This document shows positions 6,814 through 14,477 of a stretch of 64,000 nucleotides of DNA, piece after piece. The stretch lies in NCBI RefSeq assembly GCF_055900595.2, contig NZ_CM148325.1. One strand, 5' to 3'. Numbering within the stretch: position 1 is the stretch's first letter; each line of letters opens with the position of its first letter. A model generated the notes under the pieces. That model made no database searches. It had not been told where the DNA came from and was given only the letters and a program-made list of their open reading frames with translations. Position numbers and translations under genes: made by a program.

Positions 6814-7025
6814 TGTGAAAATGTAAAAAGTCGCTGATATGGACTGCCCCCCATAAAGTTGGACAGTTCAGGTTAAGCGGCTTTTTACACAGATATTCAC
6901 AATATAAATAACTCCCCATAATTATATAACCACGTTGATTATAAAATATTCCTCGTCCTCTCTATCAAAGTCATTGACTACCAGGTAAGATCTTTTCCAC
7001 CGCAACACTCACAAGGAATGAGAAA

Positions 7026-7874
7026 ATGGAAAAGAAATTTTTTATGGATTGGGATAATGAAATCCCGCAAGAAGAGTTTATTAACAATATTTTAGCCGAT
7101 GAAGACCTGCCTAAAATCCGCTCTCTGATTATTGGTCGTTGGGGGGAGTGCTGGGATGAGGAAAGTTGCCAACCAATAATCGACATGTTTGTTGAACATG
7201 CCGAACGCTTTGCTCATCTCGAATCCCTATTTATCGGCGATATGGAAAGCGAAGAGTGTGAAATTTCGTGGATAAAACAAGGGGATTATTCTCGTCTGTA
7301 TGCTGCGCTGCCGAACCTCAAAAAGCTGACAATTAAAGGTACTCAGGGCCTGGAACTGGGAGAAATCGCCCATGACAAACTGGAGCATCTGGAAATTATC
7401 TCTGGCGGTACGCCGTGTGACGTGTTCGCCTCATTGCAAAATGCCCAACTGCCTGCGTTAAAAACACTTATCGTTTATATTGGCGTTGAGAATTATGGTT
7501 TTGATGCATCGCTGGATATCGTAATGAAGCTGGCGTCGAAATCCCTCTTCCCGAGCCTGACGCATCTTGGCCTGGTGAACAGCGAAGAGCAAAACGAAAT
7601 CGTCCGCCGCGTGCTGGAAAGCGACATTCTGCCGCAACTGGAAGTGCTGGCACTCTCCTGCGGTACGCTTACCGACGAAGGTGCAGAGCATCTTCTCAAA
7701 CATGCCGATCGCCTTAGCCATCTGAAACTGCTGGATTTGTACCATCATTACCTGACAGAAGAGATGCAGAAAAAACTGCAAAAAACACTGACATGTACTC
7801 TCGAATTATCAGAAGCGCTAACGCCTGAAGTCTATGATGACGAAATTTATATGCATGCGATGTATACCGAATAA
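7026..7874 (+). CDS. Leucine-rich-repeat-like acidic cytoplasmic protein (I recall the family being labelled STM4015-like)
   Basis: 282-aa ORF with no signal peptide; repeated L-P-x-L-K-x-L / L-x-x-L-x-L segments (LPNLKKLTIKG, LEHLEIISGG, LPALKTLIVYIG, FPSLTHLGLVNS, LPQLEVLALSCG, LSHLKLLDL); AAGGA 8 nt upstream of ATG. Confidence 0.7.
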   Translation: MEKKFFMDWDNEIPQEEFINNILADEDLPKIRSLIIGRWGECWDEESCQPIIDMFVEHAERFAHLESLFIGDMESEECEISWIKQGDYSRLYAALPNLKKLTIKGTQGLELGEIAHDKLEHLEIISGGTPCDVFASLQNAQLPALKTLIVYIGVENYGFDASLDIVMKLASKSLFPSLTHLGLVNSEEQNEIVRRVLESDILPQLEVLALSCGTLTDEGAEHLLKHADRLSHLKLLDLYHHYLTEEMQKKLQKTLTCTLELSEALTPEVYDDEIYMHAMYTE

Positions 7875-7934
7875 ATGACATTTATTGGGAGAGAGTCATC
7901 TCTCCCATTATTTATCACAGAAAAGGAATTCTTC

Positions 7935-8921
7935 GTGATTACGCTAATTGGTCATCCTGAAAGCAAACGCACATTTTATTTTTGCCAGGCAGCGTCACGC
8001 TTACAGGAACATATCAACGTAGTGAGCTATGATCAAGCACTTACCCTGCTCTTAAATAAAGGCATGGTAAAAATCGATCCCCCCTTACATCAGGAAACAG
8101 ATATTCGCTTAATTAATACGGTTAGCCAAAACTATATTACTTTTTTACAAAAAATGGCTACCAGAAGGGAGATCCGTTTTATTAACTCACCAGAAGGTAT
8201 TATTCATCTTCTGGATAAACGCCACTGTAAGCAACGATTAGTCGAACACGCGATCCCGACACCGCCAATATTAGCGGATGATATCCGTAGCTACGATCAA
8301 CTGATCGCCTGTATGCGCAGCGAAAAGGTTTATCGCGTGTTTATTAAGCCGAATTTCGGATCAGGGGCCGCCGGGGTGCTGGCTTTGAGTCTACATCCCG
8401 GCGATAACCGTCAGGTGCTTTATTGCGCCATCCAGGTTGCAGGTGACAGGCTGGTGAACAGTAAACATATTATCCGCTATGAAAACAGCGGTGATATTAC
8501 GTTGATTGTGAATGCTATTTTACAACAAGACAATATTATCGAACGCTGGCTGGCAAAAGCCAGAGTGGGCAATAAAAGCTACGATTTACGCATCGTGTAC
8601 GTTAATGGTGAAATCGTCTGGCGGGTTGTCAGAACATCATCACAGCCGATCACCAATTTACATTTACAAAATGAAGCTATCCGTTTTGCCGATCTTAATT
8701 TACCCGTAGAAAAAGTAGCTGAAATTGATACGCTTTGTCTCAACGCCATGACCCTCTATCCGGACGTACACATTGCCGGGCTTGACGTATTACTCACGCA
8801 AAATTTAACACCCTATATTATCGAAATTAACGGCCAGGGCGATCTTATTTATCAGGACACCTGCGAAAAAAACAAAATTTATCAACGCCAGATTCAGGTA
8901 ATGAGAGAACATCATGTATAA
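7935..8921 (+). CDS. ATP-grasp-like protein (I recall the family being labelled STM4014-like)
   Basis: ORF 7875-8921; start placed at in-frame GTG 7935 because AAGGA lies 7 nt upstream, but the ATG at 7875 immediately after the preceding stop is an alternative. The ATP-grasp assignment is by resemblance only. Confidence 0.55.
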   Translation: MITLIGHPESKRTFYFCQAASRLQEHINVVSYDQALTLLLNKGMVKIDPPLHQETDIRLINTVSQNYITFLQKMATRREIRFINSPEGIIHLLDKRHCKQRLVEHAIPTPPILADDIRSYDQLIACMRSEKVYRVFIKPNFGSGAAGVLALSLHPGDNRQVLYCAIQVAGDRLVNSKHIIRYENSGDITLIVNAILQQDNIIERWLAKARVGNKSYDLRIVYVNGEIVWRVVRTSSQPITNLHLQNEAIRFADLNLPVEKVAEIDTLCLNAMTLYPDVHIAGLDVLLTQNLTPYIIEINGQGDLIYQDTCEKNKIYQRQIQVMREHHV

Positions 8922-9786
8922 CGTAACAGACGAAGTACCGGAAAATACCCGCACGGCAATCCATTCCTGCGATGGCGAAATCAATCTGAATGATTTAATT
9001 GCCAGGGAAGCCAATATCCTGTTTGTGGTGCTTGATTCCCTGCGTTTTGATATTGCGTTTCAGGAACAAGAGGCGGGAAATACACCAAATATTAACCGCT
9101 ATGGTCGCTGGATAAAGTGTGAAGCCGCTGGCAATTTTACCTGGCCTTCGCATCATTCGATGTTCTCTGGTTTTATGCCTAAGCCGCTGGAAGCTGCACC
9201 TGGTCATTCAATGCTCTTTTTCCCGAAAGATATTGGTTTAGGTCGTTTAGGGCCAAAAAATGCGTTCGCGTTCAGCGAAGAGACGTGGATTAAAGGGCTG
9301 GAAAACAAAGGTTACCGCACTATCTGCGTGGGTGGCGTCTCCTTTTTTAATAACCGCTCAGGGATGGGAAAAGTGTTCCCGGCGATGTTTAAAGAGAGTT
9401 ACTGGTATCCTAATTTCTCCTGCACGGTGAAAGAGAGCATGGATAATCAGCTCACCTTAATTAACAAAAAGGTGAACGCTGAACAGCCGCTGATGATGTA
9501 TATCAATATCGACACCATTCATTATCCGAATCATTTTTATATTGAAAATGCCAAACCTGGCGATACGGTAGAAACTCACGCCGCTGCCCTGCATTATATT
9601 GATGCCAGAATCGAAAAACTTTTCGATATCTTTCGGCAAACCGGGCGGGAGACGTTAGTTATTCTCTGTTCCGATCATGGCACCTGCTACGGGGAAGACG
9701 GTAAATATTTCCACAGTTTTAACCATCCGATTGTGAATACCGTACCCTATTTTCACTTTGTGTTAGACGGCAAAGACCATGAATAA
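8914..9786 (+). CDS. Alkaline-phosphatase-superfamily metallo-hydrolase (phosphodiesterase/phosphomutase/sulfatase-like core)
   Basis: 290-aa ORF with N-terminal FVVLDSLRFD motif typical of AlkP-core metal-binding enzymes; start overlaps the upstream stop by 8 nt. Confidence 0.7.
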   Translation: MYNVTDEVPENTRTAIHSCDGEINLNDLIAREANILFVVLDSLRFDIAFQEQEAGNTPNINRYGRWIKCEAAGNFTWPSHHSMFSGFMPKPLEAAPGHSMLFFPKDIGLGRLGPKNAFAFSEETWIKGLENKGYRTICVGGVSFFNNRSGMGKVFPAMFKESYWYPNFSCTVKESMDNQLTLINKKVNAEQPLMMYINIDTIHYPNHFYIENAKPGDTVETHAAALHYIDARIEKLFDIFRQTGRETLVILCSDHGTCYGEDGKYFHSFNHPIVNTVPYFHFVLDGKDHE

Positions 9787-11017
9787 TGAATCGATTTATC
9801 AGCAATATATGTACAGTTACCCGCATAAGACCGCTTATCGGGAATTAAACAATATTGCTTTTGCGGATGTGAAATCGCGTATTTACGAGCATAAAACACA
9901 TCTCTATATTCATATGCCTTTTTGCCAGAGCCGCTGCGGGTTTTGTAATCTCTTTACCTGCACGGGGGCAGACAATGCCTTTATCGACAACTACATAGAA
10001 GCAATTATTATCCAGGCCCGGCAAATGCAACTTGCGCCTGTAGACTGGGCCAGTTTTACCATTGGCGGCGGTACGCCACTACTGCTTAATACCGGGCAAC
10101 TGTCACGGTTGTTTCGCGGGGTGTTTGACGAATTACAGGTCGATGCGCAGATTTTTAAGGCAATTGAAACATCGCCTTCCGATACCACCGCCGAAAAGGT
10201 CGCGTTATTGCGCCAGCTTGCGGTAAACCGCGTCAGTATTGGCATTCAGAGTTTTAACGATCTGGAACTTGCCACATTACACCGCCGCCATAGTGCGGAA
10301 AATGCCCATCGGGCGCTGGAGCTACTGCGCAGGGGTAATTTCCCGATAATCAATATTGATATTATTTACGGTATTCCTGGTCAAACAGCCGCAAGTTTAA
10401 TGGCGTCGCTTAATCAAGCATTAGATTATCAGCCTGACGAACTGTTTCTGTACCCGCTATATAACATGCCGCGTCAGCCGGATATGTATAGCCTCTATAT
10501 TGAAGCCCGCGATCGCTTATTGCATGAAGGTTATACGCAAACGTCAATGCGCCGTTTTGTGCGGGTGAATAATGATTCGGCGGCTGAAAGTTGTGGCTTT
10601 GAAAATTCGCTGGCGCTTGGCGCGGGCGGGCGCAGTTATCTTGGCAATTTACATTACTGCACGCCGTGGTCGCAAAACCAGCCCGCATCGCGGCAAATTG
10701 TCACGGATTTTATCGCCCGGCCAGATAAGACCCAGATTCACCACGGCTATGTACTTTCACAAGCAGAAATGAAGCGGCGTTTTATTATCAAGAATCTCTT
10801 TTTCTATAAGGGGCTTTCGTTACGGGATTATCAGCACCAGTTCTTCTCTGAGGTATTAAGCGATTTTCCCCTGCTGGGCGATTTCATCAAACAAGATTAC
10901 TGCCACCAGCAGGATAATCGTATTCTGCTCACCGCGCAGGGTTTAGCGCTTTCGGACCAGCTTGGCCCGCTGTTTATCTCCCCGGAAGTTCGCAGGCTGG
11001 AGACGCATAAACGATGA
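9779..11017 (+). CDS. HemN/HemW-like radical SAM protein
   Basis: 412-aa ORF with YIHMPFCQSRCGFC (C49-x3-C53-x2-C56) radical SAM motif in HemN-like context; start overlaps the upstream stop. Confidence 0.8.
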   Translation: MNNESIYQQYMYSYPHKTAYRELNNIAFADVKSRIYEHKTHLYIHMPFCQSRCGFCNLFTCTGADNAFIDNYIEAIIIQARQMQLAPVDWASFTIGGGTPLLLNTGQLSRLFRGVFDELQVDAQIFKAIETSPSDTTAEKVALLRQLAVNRVSIGIQSFNDLELATLHRRHSAENAHRALELLRRGNFPIINIDIIYGIPGQTAASLMASLNQALDYQPDELFLYPLYNMPRQPDMYSLYIEARDRLLHEGYTQTSMRRFVRVNNDSAAESCGFENSLALGAGGRSYLGNLHYCTPWSQNQPASRQIVTDFIARPDKTQIHHGYVLSQAEMKRRFIIKNLFFYKGLSLRDYQHQFFSEVLSDFPLLGDFIKQDYCHQQDNRILLTAQGLALSDQLGPLFISPEVRRLETHKR

Positions 11018-11871
11018 CGCTCAAGCAGATCCAGACGCTGATTTATCGCGGCGAGATAAAGTCGTGTAATTATCGCTGTGGTTATTGCCCTTTTCATAAA
11101 CAAGACCGCAATGATAAACAGCAGGATGAAGTGGCATTATGGCGCATGGTTGAACATTTACCGGCGCAGGGTTCACCATTAAATGTATTTATTACGCCCT
11201 ACGGCGAAGCATTGCGTTATCGTTATTATATGGCGGCGATGGCGGAAATCAGCCGCTATTCCCATGTGCAGGCGGTGGGTATTCAGACCAACGCCTCTTT
11301 TAATTTATCCACCTTAGTCGCGACTTTTCAGCACTCTCAGGGCGATTTAGCAAAGCTGCGGCTGTGGTGTTCGTTTCATCCTTCCCAGGCAAGTAAAGAA
11401 GTTTTCCTTAAACAGTTACTGGCAATTAAGGACACGGGGATTACCTGTTCTGTGGGGGCCGTCGCCAGCGTAGCCGACTATGACGAATTACAGTGGTTAC
11501 GCGCGCATCTTCCTCCCGATATCTATTTCTGGCTAAACGCCAATGAGCGCGATAAAAGGCCCACCAGCGACGAAAGAAATAGCCAGTTTCAGTTGCTGGA
11601 CCCGCTTTATTATCTGGAAACCAGCCTCTGGCCTGCCAATGTCGAGTTTTGTCTGGGCGGCAAAAAGAGCGTGTTTATGAATGCTGATGGCGATCTCTTC
11701 GCCTGTAATATCAGCAAAATTAAGATTGGCAATTTATATCAACAGCAACTTTCATCTCCGTCTTGTATGTCCAGGCACTGTCACTGTTATCTGGCTTATC
11801 ACCTGCGTGAGGATATTCCGGCCCTCTCACAATTTGATGCTGAACGCTGCTTTCGGATCTTCTCGTTATGA
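11014..11871 (+). CDS. Small radical SAM protein with C-terminal Cys/His cluster
   Basis: 285-aa ORF; CNYRCGYC (C18-x3-C22-x2-C25) near N-terminus; C231, C251, C256, C258 near C-terminus; ATGA overlap with upstream stop. Confidence 0.75.
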   Translation: MTLKQIQTLIYRGEIKSCNYRCGYCPFHKQDRNDKQQDEVALWRMVEHLPAQGSPLNVFITPYGEALRYRYYMAAMAEISRYSHVQAVGIQTNASFNLSTLVATFQHSQGDLAKLRLWCSFHPSQASKEVFLKQLLAIKDTGITCSVGAVASVADYDELQWLRAHLPPDIYFWLNANERDKRPTSDERNSQFQLLDPLYYLETSLWPANVEFCLGGKKSVFMNADGDLFACNISKIKIGNLYQQQLSSPSCMSRHCHCYLAYHLREDIPALSQFDAERCFRIFSL

Positions 11872-12563
11872 TCTGGCGGTTAATCGCGCTCGATTTAGAC
11901 GGCACATTGCTGAACAGCAAGAAGATGATTTCCCCTGCGTCTGTTTCGGCACTGCAAAGCGCACAACAGGCAGGTGTGAAAATTATCCTCGCCACCGGAC
12001 GTTCGCACAGCGAAGCCCTGCCTTATTACCAACAATTGCAGTTAACCGAGCCGATGATTTGCTGTAACGGCAGCTATCTTTATCATCCGCGCCAGCGGCA
12101 AATATTGCGTCCGCTGGCGCTTGATATCCACAAGGTGGAAAGGCTACGACTCTGGTTTTCACAACAAATATTGCAGCCAAATATTTATACGTACGATGAT
12201 TTTGTTTTGCAGATTAGCCTGATACACCGCAAGGCTTCGTTATTGCGCCAGACAGAGGAATTTGCCCGACAAGAATTATCGCTGGCCTGTAGCTGGTCCT
12301 GGCATCATCAACTGGATATTACACAGGTGGGGTGTGAGAAAGGCAAAAGTCTGGCCTGGTATGCCCGACAGCAAAATATCGTGCTGGATGAAATCATCGC
12401 CTTTGGCGATAACGATAATGATGCGGGGATGCTGCGGATGGTAGGCAAAGGGATTGCGATGGGCAATGGCAGTTCGCTGGCAAAAGTCAGTGCTGACCGC
12501 GTTATTGGTCACAACAACACAGATGCTATTGCGGATTTTCTTGATGCGCAGGGTTTCAGATGA
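11868..12563 (+). CDS. HAD-superfamily Cof-type phosphatase
   Basis: 231-aa ORF with N-terminal ALDLDGTLL motif (HAD motif I) and GDNDND near the C-terminus; ATGA overlap with upstream stop. Confidence 0.8.
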   Translation: MIWRLIALDLDGTLLNSKKMISPASVSALQSAQQAGVKIILATGRSHSEALPYYQQLQLTEPMICCNGSYLYHPRQRQILRPLALDIHKVERLRLWFSQQILQPNIYTYDDFVLQISLIHRKASLLRQTEEFARQELSLACSWSWHHQLDITQVGCEKGKSLAWYARQQNIVLDEIIAFGDNDNDAGMLRMVGKGIAMGNGSSLAKVSADRVIGHNNTDAIADFLDAQGFR

Positions 12564-12564
12564 C

Positions 12565-12600
12565 GCCTGATGCGATGCTGACGCATCTTATCAGGCCTAC
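12565..12600. repeat. REP (repetitive extragenic palindromic) element
   Basis: gcctgatgcgatgctgacgcatcttatcaggcctac, the typical enterobacterial REP palindrome. Confidence 0.75.
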
Positions 12601-12604
12601 AAAA

Positions 12605-12637
12605 GCAAAAAACCTGCCATCGCTGGCAGGTTTTTTA
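12605..12637. terminator. Bidirectional rho-independent terminator (typA and the upstream operon)
   Basis: A-tract, cctgccatcgctggcagg hairpin, then TTTTTT, between convergent genes. Confidence 0.8.
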
Positions 12638-12653
12638 TGACTAAAAAACGAAA

Positions 12654-14477
12654 TTAATCGTCTTTCGGTGCGCGGTTGGCGCGACGACGATCGTTTTCCG
12701 TCAGGTGACGTTTACGAATACGGATAGAGGTCGGAGTCACTTCTACCAGTTCGTCATCATCGATGAACTCCAGCGCTTGTTCCAGCGTCATGCGGATAGG
12801 CGGAACCAGAACAACGGCTTCGTCAGTACCGGAAGCACGCATGTTGGTCAGTTTCTTACCGGTCAGACAGTTTACAGTCAGGTCGTTAGAACGGCTGTGA
12901 ATACCGATAATCTGACCTTCGTAAACTTCTGCACCGTGACCGAGGAACAGCTTACCGCGATCCTGCAGACCGAACAGCGCGAACGCGACCGCTTTACCCT
13001 GACCGTTAGAGATCAGTACGCCGTTCTGACGCTGACCCACTTCACCCGGACGCACGTCGTCGTAGTGGCTGAAGGTGGAGTACAACAGACCCGTACCAGA
13101 GGTCATGGTCATGAACTCAGAACGGAAGCCAATCAGACCACGGCTTGGGATCACGTAGTCGAGACGTACGCGGCCTTTACCGTCTGGATTCATGTTTTTC
13201 AGGTCGCCTTTACGTTCGCCCAGCGCCTGCATCACAGAACCCTGATGCTGTTCTTCAACGTCCAGCGTCACGTTTTCATACGGCTCTTGTTTACGACCGT
13301 CGATTTCACGGAAGATAACTTTCGGACGGGATACCGCCAGTTCGAAACCTTCACGACGCATGTTTTCGATCAGAACAGACAGGTGCAGTTCGCCACGACC
13401 AGAAACGCGGAACGCATCGGCGTCTTCAGTTTCTTCTACGCGCAGCGCAACGTTGTGTACCAGTTCTTTGTTCAGACGATCCAGAATCTGACGAGACGTT
13501 ACGAACTTACCTTCTTTACCGCAGAACGGCGAGGTGTTAACGCAGAAGAACATAGAAACGGTCGGCTCATCAACGGAGAGTGCCGGCAGCGCTTCAACGT
13601 TTTGCGTGTCGCAAACGGTGTCAGAAATGTTCAGTTCGCCCAGGCCCGTGATCGCCACGATATCGCCAGCTTCCGCCAGATCGGTTTCGATACGTTCCAG
13701 ACCGAGGTGGCCCAGCACTTTACCGACTTTCGCGTTGCGGGTTTTGCCTTCGCTATCGATGATAGTAACTTGCTGGTTCGGCTTCACTTTACCGCGCTTG
13801 ATGCGGCCAATGCCGATAACGCCAACATAGCTGTTGTAATCGAGCTGAGAAATCTGCATCTGGAACGGACCGTCAAGGTCAACGTCCGGCGCAGGAACGT
13901 GGTCAACAATTGCCTGATACAGCGGGGTCATGTCTTCCGCCATATCTTCGTGGTCCAGACCGGCGATACCGTTCAGCGCAGAAGCGTAAACGATCGGGAA
14001 GTCCAGCTGCTCGTCGGTCGCGTCGAGGTTAACGAACAGGTCGAATACCTGATCCACAACCCAGTCAGGACGCGCGCCAGGGCGGTCAACTTTGTTGATA
14101 ACAACAATTGGCTTCAGGCCGTAAGCAAACGCTTTTTTGGTTACGAAGCGCGTTTGCGGCATCGGGCCGTCAAATGCGTCAACCACCAGCAGCACTGAGT
14201 CTACCATGGACATTACACGTTCAACTTCACCACCGAAGTCGGCGTGCCCCGGGGTATCAACGATGTTGATACGGTAATCATTCCATTTGATAGCGGTGTT
14301 TTTCGCGAGGATGGTAATCCCACGCTCTTTCTCCAAATCGTTGGAGTCCATCACGCGCTCTTGGGTTTCGGCACGAGAGTCGAACGTACCGGATTGTTGG
14401 AGCAGCTTGTCTACCAGGGTGGTTTTACCATGGTCTACGTGCGCGATGATGGCGATATTACGCAATTTTTCGATCAC
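12654..14477 (-). CDS. typA: Ribosome-associated translational GTPase BipA/TypA
   Basis: 607-aa ORF with G-domain motifs ([18 protein letters not shown]). Confidence 0.95.

Follow-up and report, generated by a model that had tools for sequence, protein, structure and literature searches.

We describe a gene for an acidic leucine-rich-repeat (LRR) protein of the STM4015 family and the operon that it opens on an Escherichia coli chromosome (NCBI RefSeq assembly GCF_055900595.2, contig NZ_CM148325.1). The whole stretch of DNA analysed, 64,000 nucleotides, is called the window, and the six genes of the operon are called the cassette; positions are those of the window unless another locus is named. 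The gene order is yihP, yihO, ompL, cassette, typA, glnA, and the main features are collected in Table 1. The LRR gene is the first of six tightly coupled genes: the ATG of the ATP-grasp gene at 7875 abuts the LRR stop codon, and the junctions that follow are overlaps of 8, 8, 4 and 4 nt. Directly downstream of the LRR gene, the families STM4014, STM4013, STM4012 and STM4011 are each represented by a protein that scores above the NCBIfam cut-off, and the Cof-type HAD-IIB phosphatase likewise exceeds the cut-off of its own model.

Table 1. Features of the LRR gene and its cassette in the window
Feature	Coordinates	Strand	Basis or remark
Ribosome-binding site AAGGA of the LRR gene	7013..7017	+	8 nt 5′ of the ATG; sequence inspection
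STM4015-family LRR gene, first of the operon	7026..7874	+	Intact open reading frame, ATG to TAA, 282 aa
G6 homopolymer in the LRR gene, codons W39-G40-E41	7141..7146	+	Comparison of the window with L001
Conserved loop, residues 68-89, LFIGDMESEECEISWIKQGDYS	7227..7292	+	Most conserved block of the family
C-terminal octapeptide YMHAMYTE	7848..7871	+	Family motif [YW]xx[AP]M[LIFY]TE, terminal Thr-Glu invariant
STM4014-family ATP-grasp ligase	7875..8921	+	NF038074, 336.6 bits
STM4013/SEN3800-family enzyme, alkaline-phosphatase/sulfatase superfamily	8914..9786	+	NF038075, 351 bits
STM4012-family HemN-like radical SAM enzyme	9779..11017	+	NF006067, 491.8 bits
STM4011-family small radical SAM enzyme, Cys-rich C-terminus	11014..11871	+	NF038073, 299.5 bits
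Cof-type HAD-IIB phosphatase, last gene of the operon	11868..12563	+	TIGR00099, 179 bits
GC-rich hairpin CCTGCCA-TCGC-TGGCAGG with flanking A-run and T-run	12613..12636	.	Sequence inspection

Family, fold and conserved elements of the LRR protein

The product belongs to the NCBIfam family NF038076, "STM4015 family protein", whose model aligns over positions 4-289 of 290 with residues 4-281 of the LRR protein (323.1 bits against a cut-off of 275, E 1.3e-96). The family carries the catalogue status "hypothetical equivalog", and one relative has a solved structure, PDB 2RA8, an uncharacterised structural-genomics entry for the Bacteroides fragilis protein Q64V53. Since both family and structure are already on record, the LRR open reading frame (ORF) is not a new kind of gene. 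A literature search on the family, its members and related types of system found no paper on function; the mentions that it returned were incidental table entries in a positive-selection screen and in a sigma-54 chromatin immunoprecipitation study. What is new is the functional hypothesis put forward below, which is specific and testable, and unproven.

Relatives of the LRR protein fill at least 964 clusters at 50% identity with E <= 1e-30, and at least 424 species genomes code for one. The 80 best-matching loci are nearly all from Lachnospiraceae and other Clostridia; further hosts include Bacteroides (2RA8), E. coli, E. fergusonii, E. marmotae, Salmonella, Superficieibacter and Janthinobacterium. 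A second large subfamily (B), with the tail ..RY[VI]AV[SG]E, also passes the NF038076 cut-off. Some homologues are long and carry extra Pfam domains (WGR, DUF1508, TPR/Sel1 or KOW), all of them N-terminal to the LRR region, and the LRR match extends to the C-terminus in those checked. Because the additions sit at the N-terminal side, the C-terminus of the LRR domain stays free.

The 282-residue product is a real LRR solenoid. Its AlphaFold model, built on an alignment of 38 homologues, has a mean predicted local distance difference test score (pLDDT) of 92.3 and a predicted template modelling score (pTM) of 0.92, and contains nine short parallel beta-strands, each preceded by [LF]PxLxxLxI. The strands start at residues 33, 67, 100, 121, 147, 180, 207, 235 and 258, giving repeats of 21-34 residues. 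The simpler motif L..L.[LIV] occurs nine times, against 1.52 +/- 1.16 expected from 5000 composition-preserving shuffles, none of which reached nine (0/5000). In a Foldseek comparison the model superimposes on crystal structure 2RA8 with a template modelling score (TM) of 0.91 and a root-mean-square deviation of 1.9 A, and every other match is an LRR protein, for example TIR1, NLRC4, internalins and Toll-like receptors. A profile of the 38 homologues likewise retrieves 2RA8 (E 1.5e-96), followed by ribonuclease inhibitor (E 3e-5) and the LRR domains of NLR (nucleotide-binding, leucine-rich-repeat) proteins at about 1e-5. Pfam LRR models match the protein at sub-threshold level only (best LRR_R13L1-DRL21, E 0.24; LRR_6, E 1.2), and some homologues match Pfam LRR_14 or LRR_4.

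The protein is strongly acidic, with an isoelectric point (pI) of 4.61, a net charge of -29, 18.4% Asp plus Glu, 8.2% Lys plus Arg and 14.9% Leu; the family is equally acidic (median pI 4.39 in 198 homologues). No signal peptide or membrane segment was found in it, the top 19-residue hydropathy window being 1.06. The first 30 residues have a net charge of -6 and a mean hydropathy of -0.87. With so acidic and hydrophilic an N-terminus, and no 19-residue window hydrophobic enough for a membrane, we take the protein to be cytoplasmic. A preliminary description of this DNA had placed the ORF at exactly the coordinates of Table 1, at the head of an enzyme operon, and had characterised its product as an acidic cytoplasmic LRR protein without a signal peptide. 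The abutting and overlapping downstream genes, the pI, the hydropathy and the model bear this out, and the fold prediction that it had proposed as a check returned an LRR solenoid close to 2RA8 rather than some other fold. Its estimate of at least six repeats was right as to their reality and too low as to their number, which is nine by motifs and by strands.

Two elements of the family stand out by their conservation. The first is the C-terminus. In the alignment of 38 homologues T281 and E282 are invariant and M279 is nearly so. All LRR proteins of the compared loci (88/88) end in Thr-Glu, with the consensus [YW]xx[AP]M[LIM]TE, as do 115 of 120 close homologues, the five exceptions being fragments or frameshift fusions. 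Among the best distant representatives (50% clustering), 140 of 147 end in Glu, in the form ..PM[LIF]TE or ..RYVAV[SG]E, so the residue ahead of the terminal Glu differs between the subfamilies (TE versus SE, GE or AE). The second element is the block of residues 68-89, with the family pattern LFIGDMxxEECE[IV]SWIxQGDYS, in which L68, F69, G71, E76, E79, S81, W82, I83, Q85 and G86 are invariant (alignment A1); its Glu, Ser and Trp are invariant in subfamily B too. Position 78 varies: Cys in the present protein, it is Gln in 2RA8, and some homologues have Ser or Asn there. These two most conserved elements are also the two least confident parts of the model: residues 71-80 have a pLDDT of 61, with residues 75-77 below 50, and the last two residues have a pLDDT of 60. 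We read block 68-89, as modelled, as a conserved flexible loop and a candidate site of interaction or modification.

The ATP-grasp partner and the rest of the cassette

The full cassette (LRR, ATP-grasp, STM4013, STM4012, STM4011 and HAD phosphatase) recurs in Bacillota, Betaproteobacteria and Gammaproteobacteria. Of the 88 loci, 61 have it complete, and contig ends truncate most of the rest. The set recurs while the flanking genes change at each locus, and we therefore consider it a self-contained module. The ATP-grasp gene lies 3′ of the LRR gene in every locus with enough downstream sequence except L079, a contig from Defluviitaleaceae. The two genes overlap by 4 nt (ATGA) in about 50 loci, and their adjacency is kept where the gene order is permuted (L005). 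In six loci the LRR and ATP-grasp genes occur as a pair, followed by unrelated genes and with no other cassette enzymes nearby.

The start of the ATP-grasp gene in the window is ambiguous. The ATG at 7875 has no obvious ribosome-binding site; the GTG at 7935, 60 nt on, has an AAGGA of its own upstream, is the choice of the NCBI annotation pipeline (PGAP) in L001, and is where the family model match begins (residue 23 of the long ORF). The invariant catalytic set of STM4014 comprises K138, a GSGAAG loop, D284, E297 and N299. Its modelled domain is closest in structure to ArgX bound to LysW (3vpb, E 2.9e-13, TM 0.76), followed by RimK with RpsF (5zk6, E 1.4e-11), which is the fourth Foldseek match overall and the second distinct ATP-grasp entry, and by LysX/ArgX with LysW-gamma-AAA (5k2m, E 2.6e-11). 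DcsG, the graspetide ligases PsnB and MdnB, and D-Ala-D-Ala ligases rank lower. Ahead of all these stood 2RA8, which was matched by the LRR half of the model. By sequence, the best characterised relatives are MptN, RimK, LysX and CofF. These nearest known enzymes act on a terminal Glu carboxylate, three of them on the C-terminal Glu of a protein.

The STM4013 protein, which goes by the name "sulfatase-family hydrolase", aligns its "FTWPSHH" with the "CAPSR" of sulfatases, with Thr in place of the formylglycine Cys and His in place of Arg. Residues T76, P78, S79, H80, D41, D254 and H255 are at least 97% conserved among 71 homologues, all of which keep the motif T-[YWLFC]-P-[SA]-H. A true sulfatase matured by the radical S-adenosylmethionine (SAM) enzymes is ruled out, because Thr-x-P-S-His replaces Cys/Ser-x-P-x-Arg; by analogy, STM4013 is probably a Thr-nucleophile phospho-esterase or phospho-transferase, like the nucleotide pyrophosphatases/phosphodiesterases (NPP) and phosphoethanolamine transferases. 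The solved structures closest to STM4012 are HemN (1olt, E 1.3e-26) and the class C methyltransferase NocN (9p2u, E 7e-23). STM4011 matches Pfam Radical_SAM at E 8e-4 and has a weak, sub-threshold match to SPASM (E 0.004).

The HAD phosphatase is part of the system, recurrent yet swappable. In E. coli it is a free-standing Cof-type IIB protein of 231 aa, whose match to the family model is split in two and lacks about 17-30 model positions. In Bacillota a HAD domain and STM4011 form a fused ORF of about 500 aa (L002, L005 and L007), and at L090 (8083-9708) the ATP-grasp enzyme carries a HAD domain of a different subfamily, type IA and YjjG-like. The cassettes examined, the flanks of which differ at every locus, contained neither a conserved small ORF nor any other candidate for a substrate; a hidden gene for a small precursor peptide was rejected on the same ground. 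Searches upstream of the cassette, in the window and in eight loci, found no riboswitch or other RNA leader.

Among complete E. coli genomes, 157 of 5426 (about 3%) carry the 5.7-kb cassette (7026-12563), most copies being 90-95% identical to that of the window. In K-12 (NC_000913.3, 4060447-4063512; L096) the slot between bipA/typA and ompL holds yihL-yihM-yihN, not the cassette. A tie to the adjacent sulfoquinovose genes (yihO, yihP, yihQ and ompL) was judged coincidental because the neighbours of the cassette are unrelated in other taxa. In three near-identical contigs of Lachnospiraceae (L002-L004, 13960-16875) the gene that comes immediately after the cassette is for an nSTAND NTPase with TPR repeats; this association is probably incidental, as it is absent from the other loci examined.

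In NZ_CP098223.1 (L001), an E. coli strain 99.9% identical to the window, the LRR gene is annotated "frameshifted": one G is lost from the run at 7141-7146, which reads G5 instead of G6. Two shortened cluster representatives, of 229 and 222 aa, are identical to our query across 81% and 79% of its length. Together these suggest that a broken allele is recurrent or that the run is prone to sequencing error. In Salmonella Typhi, the 319-aa protein P0029 aligns to the LRR query over 70% of its length, and its last residues (..IYQAQIRAMRKQNV) are similar to the C-terminus of STM4014 ATP-grasp proteins. To judge from its sequence, P0029 looks like a deletion or frameshift fusion of the LRR and ATP-grasp genes, i.e., a Typhi pseudogene. 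STM4015 has been flagged as under Typhi-specific selection (PMC2784778).

Beyond the last gene, the hairpin of Table 1, given as 12613-12630 when counted apart from the flanking runs, is likely a bidirectional terminator common to the operon and the convergent typA, or part of the region around the 3′ end of typA. It is overlapped on the minus strand by a match to STnc370 (53.2 bits against a gathering score of 54), and a repetitive extragenic palindromic (REP)-like element precedes it within 12530-12669 (naRNA4 match, E 0.024).

Candidate roles of the LRR protein

We tentatively propose, as a reading that falls somewhat short of an even chance, that STM4015 serves its cassette as a dedicated substrate protein or covalent carrier. 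What points to it is the invariant and free C-terminal Glu encoded beside a ligase of the LysX/RimK kind, together with the recurrent linkage of the genes and the structural kinship of the ligase; the fold and family of the protein and the intact catalytic motifs of STM4014 and STM4013 are likewise established. Also in its favour are the N-terminal position of the extra domains in long homologues, the low model confidence of just the two best conserved elements, and the lack of another candidate substrate in the cassettes examined. The LRR body would act as a docking platform. STM4014 would activate the carboxylate of the terminal Glu, the putative ligation site, as an acyl-phosphate, and would then ligate to it an amine, be it an amino acid or a small molecule of another kind. 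Next, the radical SAM enzymes STM4012 and STM4011, the Thr-nucleophile enzyme STM4013 and the HAD phosphatase might remodel either the group so attached or the neighbouring conserved loop, E-x-x-E-[IV]-S-W. The steps may follow in this order, and the product could stay on the protein or be released from it. The copy number of the LRR gene at some loci fits this proposal. L079 (1116-3756) carries three tandem LRR paralogues (287, 306 and 287 aa), each sharing 46-48% identity with the E. coli protein and each ending in PMITE, and at L093 (6324-7253) an orphan subfamily-B gene, ending ..RYIAVSE, lies at least about 5 kb from any cassette enzyme. Multiple copies are typically a trait of substrates, in support of the proposed role. 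The neighbours of the orphan gene include proteins with a Lon substrate-binding domain and DUF309.

In a narrower version, which we consider unlikely, the 30-kDa STM4015 would carry its cargo covalently and be, in function, a very large counterpart of LysW. ATP-grasp ligation would build a small molecule or a cofactor derived from protein on the C-terminal Glu; the two radical SAM enzymes would then transform it, and phospho-ester chemistry would trim it. If that were so, the cassette would represent a system of protein-templated biosynthesis not recognised before, widespread among Lachnospiraceae of the gut and found also in Bacteroides, Salmonella and about 3% of complete E. coli genomes.

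Several observations weigh against a substrate or carrier role. STM4014 falls far below the curated cut-offs of RimK, LysX, MptN and CofF (31.1 bits against 275.6 for LysX, TIGR02144; 37.6 bits against 143.4 for RimK, TIGR00768), so that its kinship with LysX is structural only. An AlphaFold model of STM4014 joined to STM4015 by 30 Gly residues gave no confident complex: both halves were folded, with a pTM of 0.54 and a tail pLDDT of 63, in a single fusion based on 21 paired sequences and run without a control, predicted aligned errors or coordinates. Residues 261-280 are confidently modelled (pLDDT 93 and 88) and just the last two are loose; the tail may therefore be a packed structural cap, unlike the flexible arm of LysW. 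The cassette contains no peptidase or amidase able to release a product. At L079 STM4013 comes immediately after the LRR genes and an adjacent ATP-grasp gene is missing, and the same gap occurs at L092 (LRR, STM4013, STM4012 and STM4011), where the LRR gene lies 124 nt from the contig end. The orphan copy at L093 still ends in Glu.

The alternative that survives best, which we regard as possible if rather doubtful, is that the LRR protein works non-covalently, as a scaffold or specificity subunit. It would bind some other protein or a ligand on its concave face for presentation to the enzymes, or would keep the enzymes together, and its conserved C-terminal motif would be a structural cap or a docking peptide and not a reaction site. 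LRR solenoids are classical recognition modules, and the structural neighbours of this one (TIR1, NLRC4, ribonuclease inhibitor) are all binding proteins; N-terminal WGR, TPR and KOW fusions fit an adaptor, and the protein is kept in cassettes without an adjacent ATP-grasp gene. This alternative stays credible because of the low pTM of the fusion, the tail packed confidently to residue 280, the arrangements at L079, L092 and L093 and the lack of a releasing hydrolase. It leaves unexplained, however, why the terminal Glu is kept across subfamilies that differ in the residues before it, why C-terminal fusions are absent and why the gene is triplicated at L079. Nor did any cassette examined contain another conserved protein or peptide to serve as the real substrate, and the fusion with the ATP-grasp enzyme produced no complex for a scaffold either. 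The preliminary description had offered two roles, a substrate of the downstream enzymes or a specificity or scaffold subunit. The terminal Glu, the adjacency of the ATP-grasp gene, the N-terminal domains and the L079 array are consistent with that pair of roles, to which the fusion model, with its pTM of 0.54, lent no support.

It is also conceivable, and in our estimate improbable, that the protein is a substrate modified at the loop E76-x-x-E79-[IV]-S81-W82, with the C-terminal Glu serving only as a recognition handle. STM4013 might move a phospho-linked group to Ser81, for example, or a radical SAM enzyme might introduce a cross-link at this site. In both subfamilies no other block is as well conserved, and in the model its pLDDT is the lowest. 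STM4013, with its Thr nucleophile, is weakly similar to phosphoethanolamine transferases, and some members of that group modify Ser or Thr residues of proteins. At L079 and L092, moreover, where no ATP-grasp gene is adjacent, the LRR gene is retained alongside STM4013, and at L092 alongside both radical SAM enzymes as well. The case for a reaction at the loop is nonetheless indirect, and Cys78 within it varies. The loop is, besides, intact in the six pair-only loci, though genes for STM4013 and the radical SAM enzymes are not nearby. Modification at the loop is compatible with STM4015 being the substrate of the cassette and does not exclude ligation at the Glu.

It is very improbable, in our view, that the protein acts as a sensor or regulator, be it for conflict or defence or for a small-molecule pathway, without taking part in the enzyme chemistry. 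LRR domains do sense in NLR-type immunity, with NLRs among the structural neighbours, the nSTAND NTPase adjoins the cassette in the three Lachnospiraceae loci, and in E. coli the cassette occupies a variable slot. However, five of the six cassette proteins, the LRR protein included, match no PADLOC model, and the sixth, STM4012, has one weak radical SAM match (E 9e-6); there is no effector domain, DNA-binding domain or mobile-element context, the STAND neighbour is missing at other loci, and the upstream searches described above gave no riboswitch. A type III effector, finally, is ruled out by the lack of a NEL domain, the acidic N-terminus and the metabolic type of the operon.

Since the cassette is frequent among Lachnospiraceae of the gut and also occurs in Bacteroides, Salmonella and some E. 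coli, what it makes could be a metabolite, a cofactor or a modified protein of the gut microbiota that has gone unrecognised. Should the substrate or carrier role prove wrong, STM4015 would still be a rare cytoplasmic LRR adaptor of bacteria, with a known structure and conserved enzyme partners.

Comparison with known systems

Salmonella and E. coli have other LRR proteins, the effectors of the IpaH/SspH/SlrP type. STM4015 differs from them in having no NEL ligase domain and no N-terminus resembling a secretion signal, and it lies in an operon of metabolic type that gut Bacillota have too; its repeats are irregular (21-34 residues) and in part similar to those of ribonuclease inhibitor and NLRs.

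The closest known relative in structure, 2RA8, shares with STM4015 the LRR solenoid (TM 0.91), the tail ..PM[IL]TE and the neighbours STM4014, STM4013, STM4012 and STM4011. It differs by about 78 extra N-terminal residues ahead of the family match, which, by analogy with other long homologues, are probably a WGR domain.

An encoded substrate that leads an operon of radical SAM and/or ATP-grasp enzymes recalls the pathways for pyrroloquinoline quinone (PqqA-PqqE), mycofactocin (MftA-MftC) and graspetides (PsnB, MdnB), and so do conserved C-terminal residues that include a Glu and an aromatic residue. The "precursor", however, would be a folded domain of 30 kDa and not a short leader peptide as in peptides that are made on ribosomes and altered after translation (RiPPs), and library scans of the window and the compared cassettes found no match to a RiPP recognition element (RRE)/PqqD domain or to a peptidase.

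The likeness to LysW lies in an acidic protein with a conserved free C-terminal Glu, encoded beside an ATP-grasp ligase (LysX/ArgX). The zinc-ribbon protein LysW has about 54 aa and a flexible tail, EDWGE, whereas STM4015 is a 282-aa solenoid with the tail ..AMYTE, of which only the last two residues are loose in the model. In Thermus, Sulfolobus and Thermococcus, where LysW and LysX serve lysine and arginine biosynthesis, the partners are ArgB/C/D/E-like; here they are radical SAM enzymes, a protein of the alkaline-phosphatase type and a HAD phosphatase. In the LysW system the pathway intermediate is held by a gamma-glutamyl bond and freed by a LysK-like hydrolase; the STM4015 cassette has no such releasing hydrolase, and STM4014 is not a LysX equivalog.

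RimK and ribosomal protein S6 offer the other parallel, an ATP-grasp ligase acting on the C-terminal Glu of a folded acidic protein (poly-alpha-glutamylation in S6). The neighbour of STM4014 is an LRR protein, not S6, and RimK has no radical SAM or phosphatase partners. As the defining features of each system were tested and failed, STM4015 is not a member of the LysW/amino-group carrier protein (AmCP), RimK-S6, RiPP-precursor or type III effector classes. By analogy, it may work like LysW with LysX or S6 with RimK. If it does, a large folded LRR domain would join S6 and LysW (and, by analogy, Pup and tubulin) among the proteins extended at a C-terminal Glu, and the chemistry of that residue would be linked to two radical SAM enzymes.

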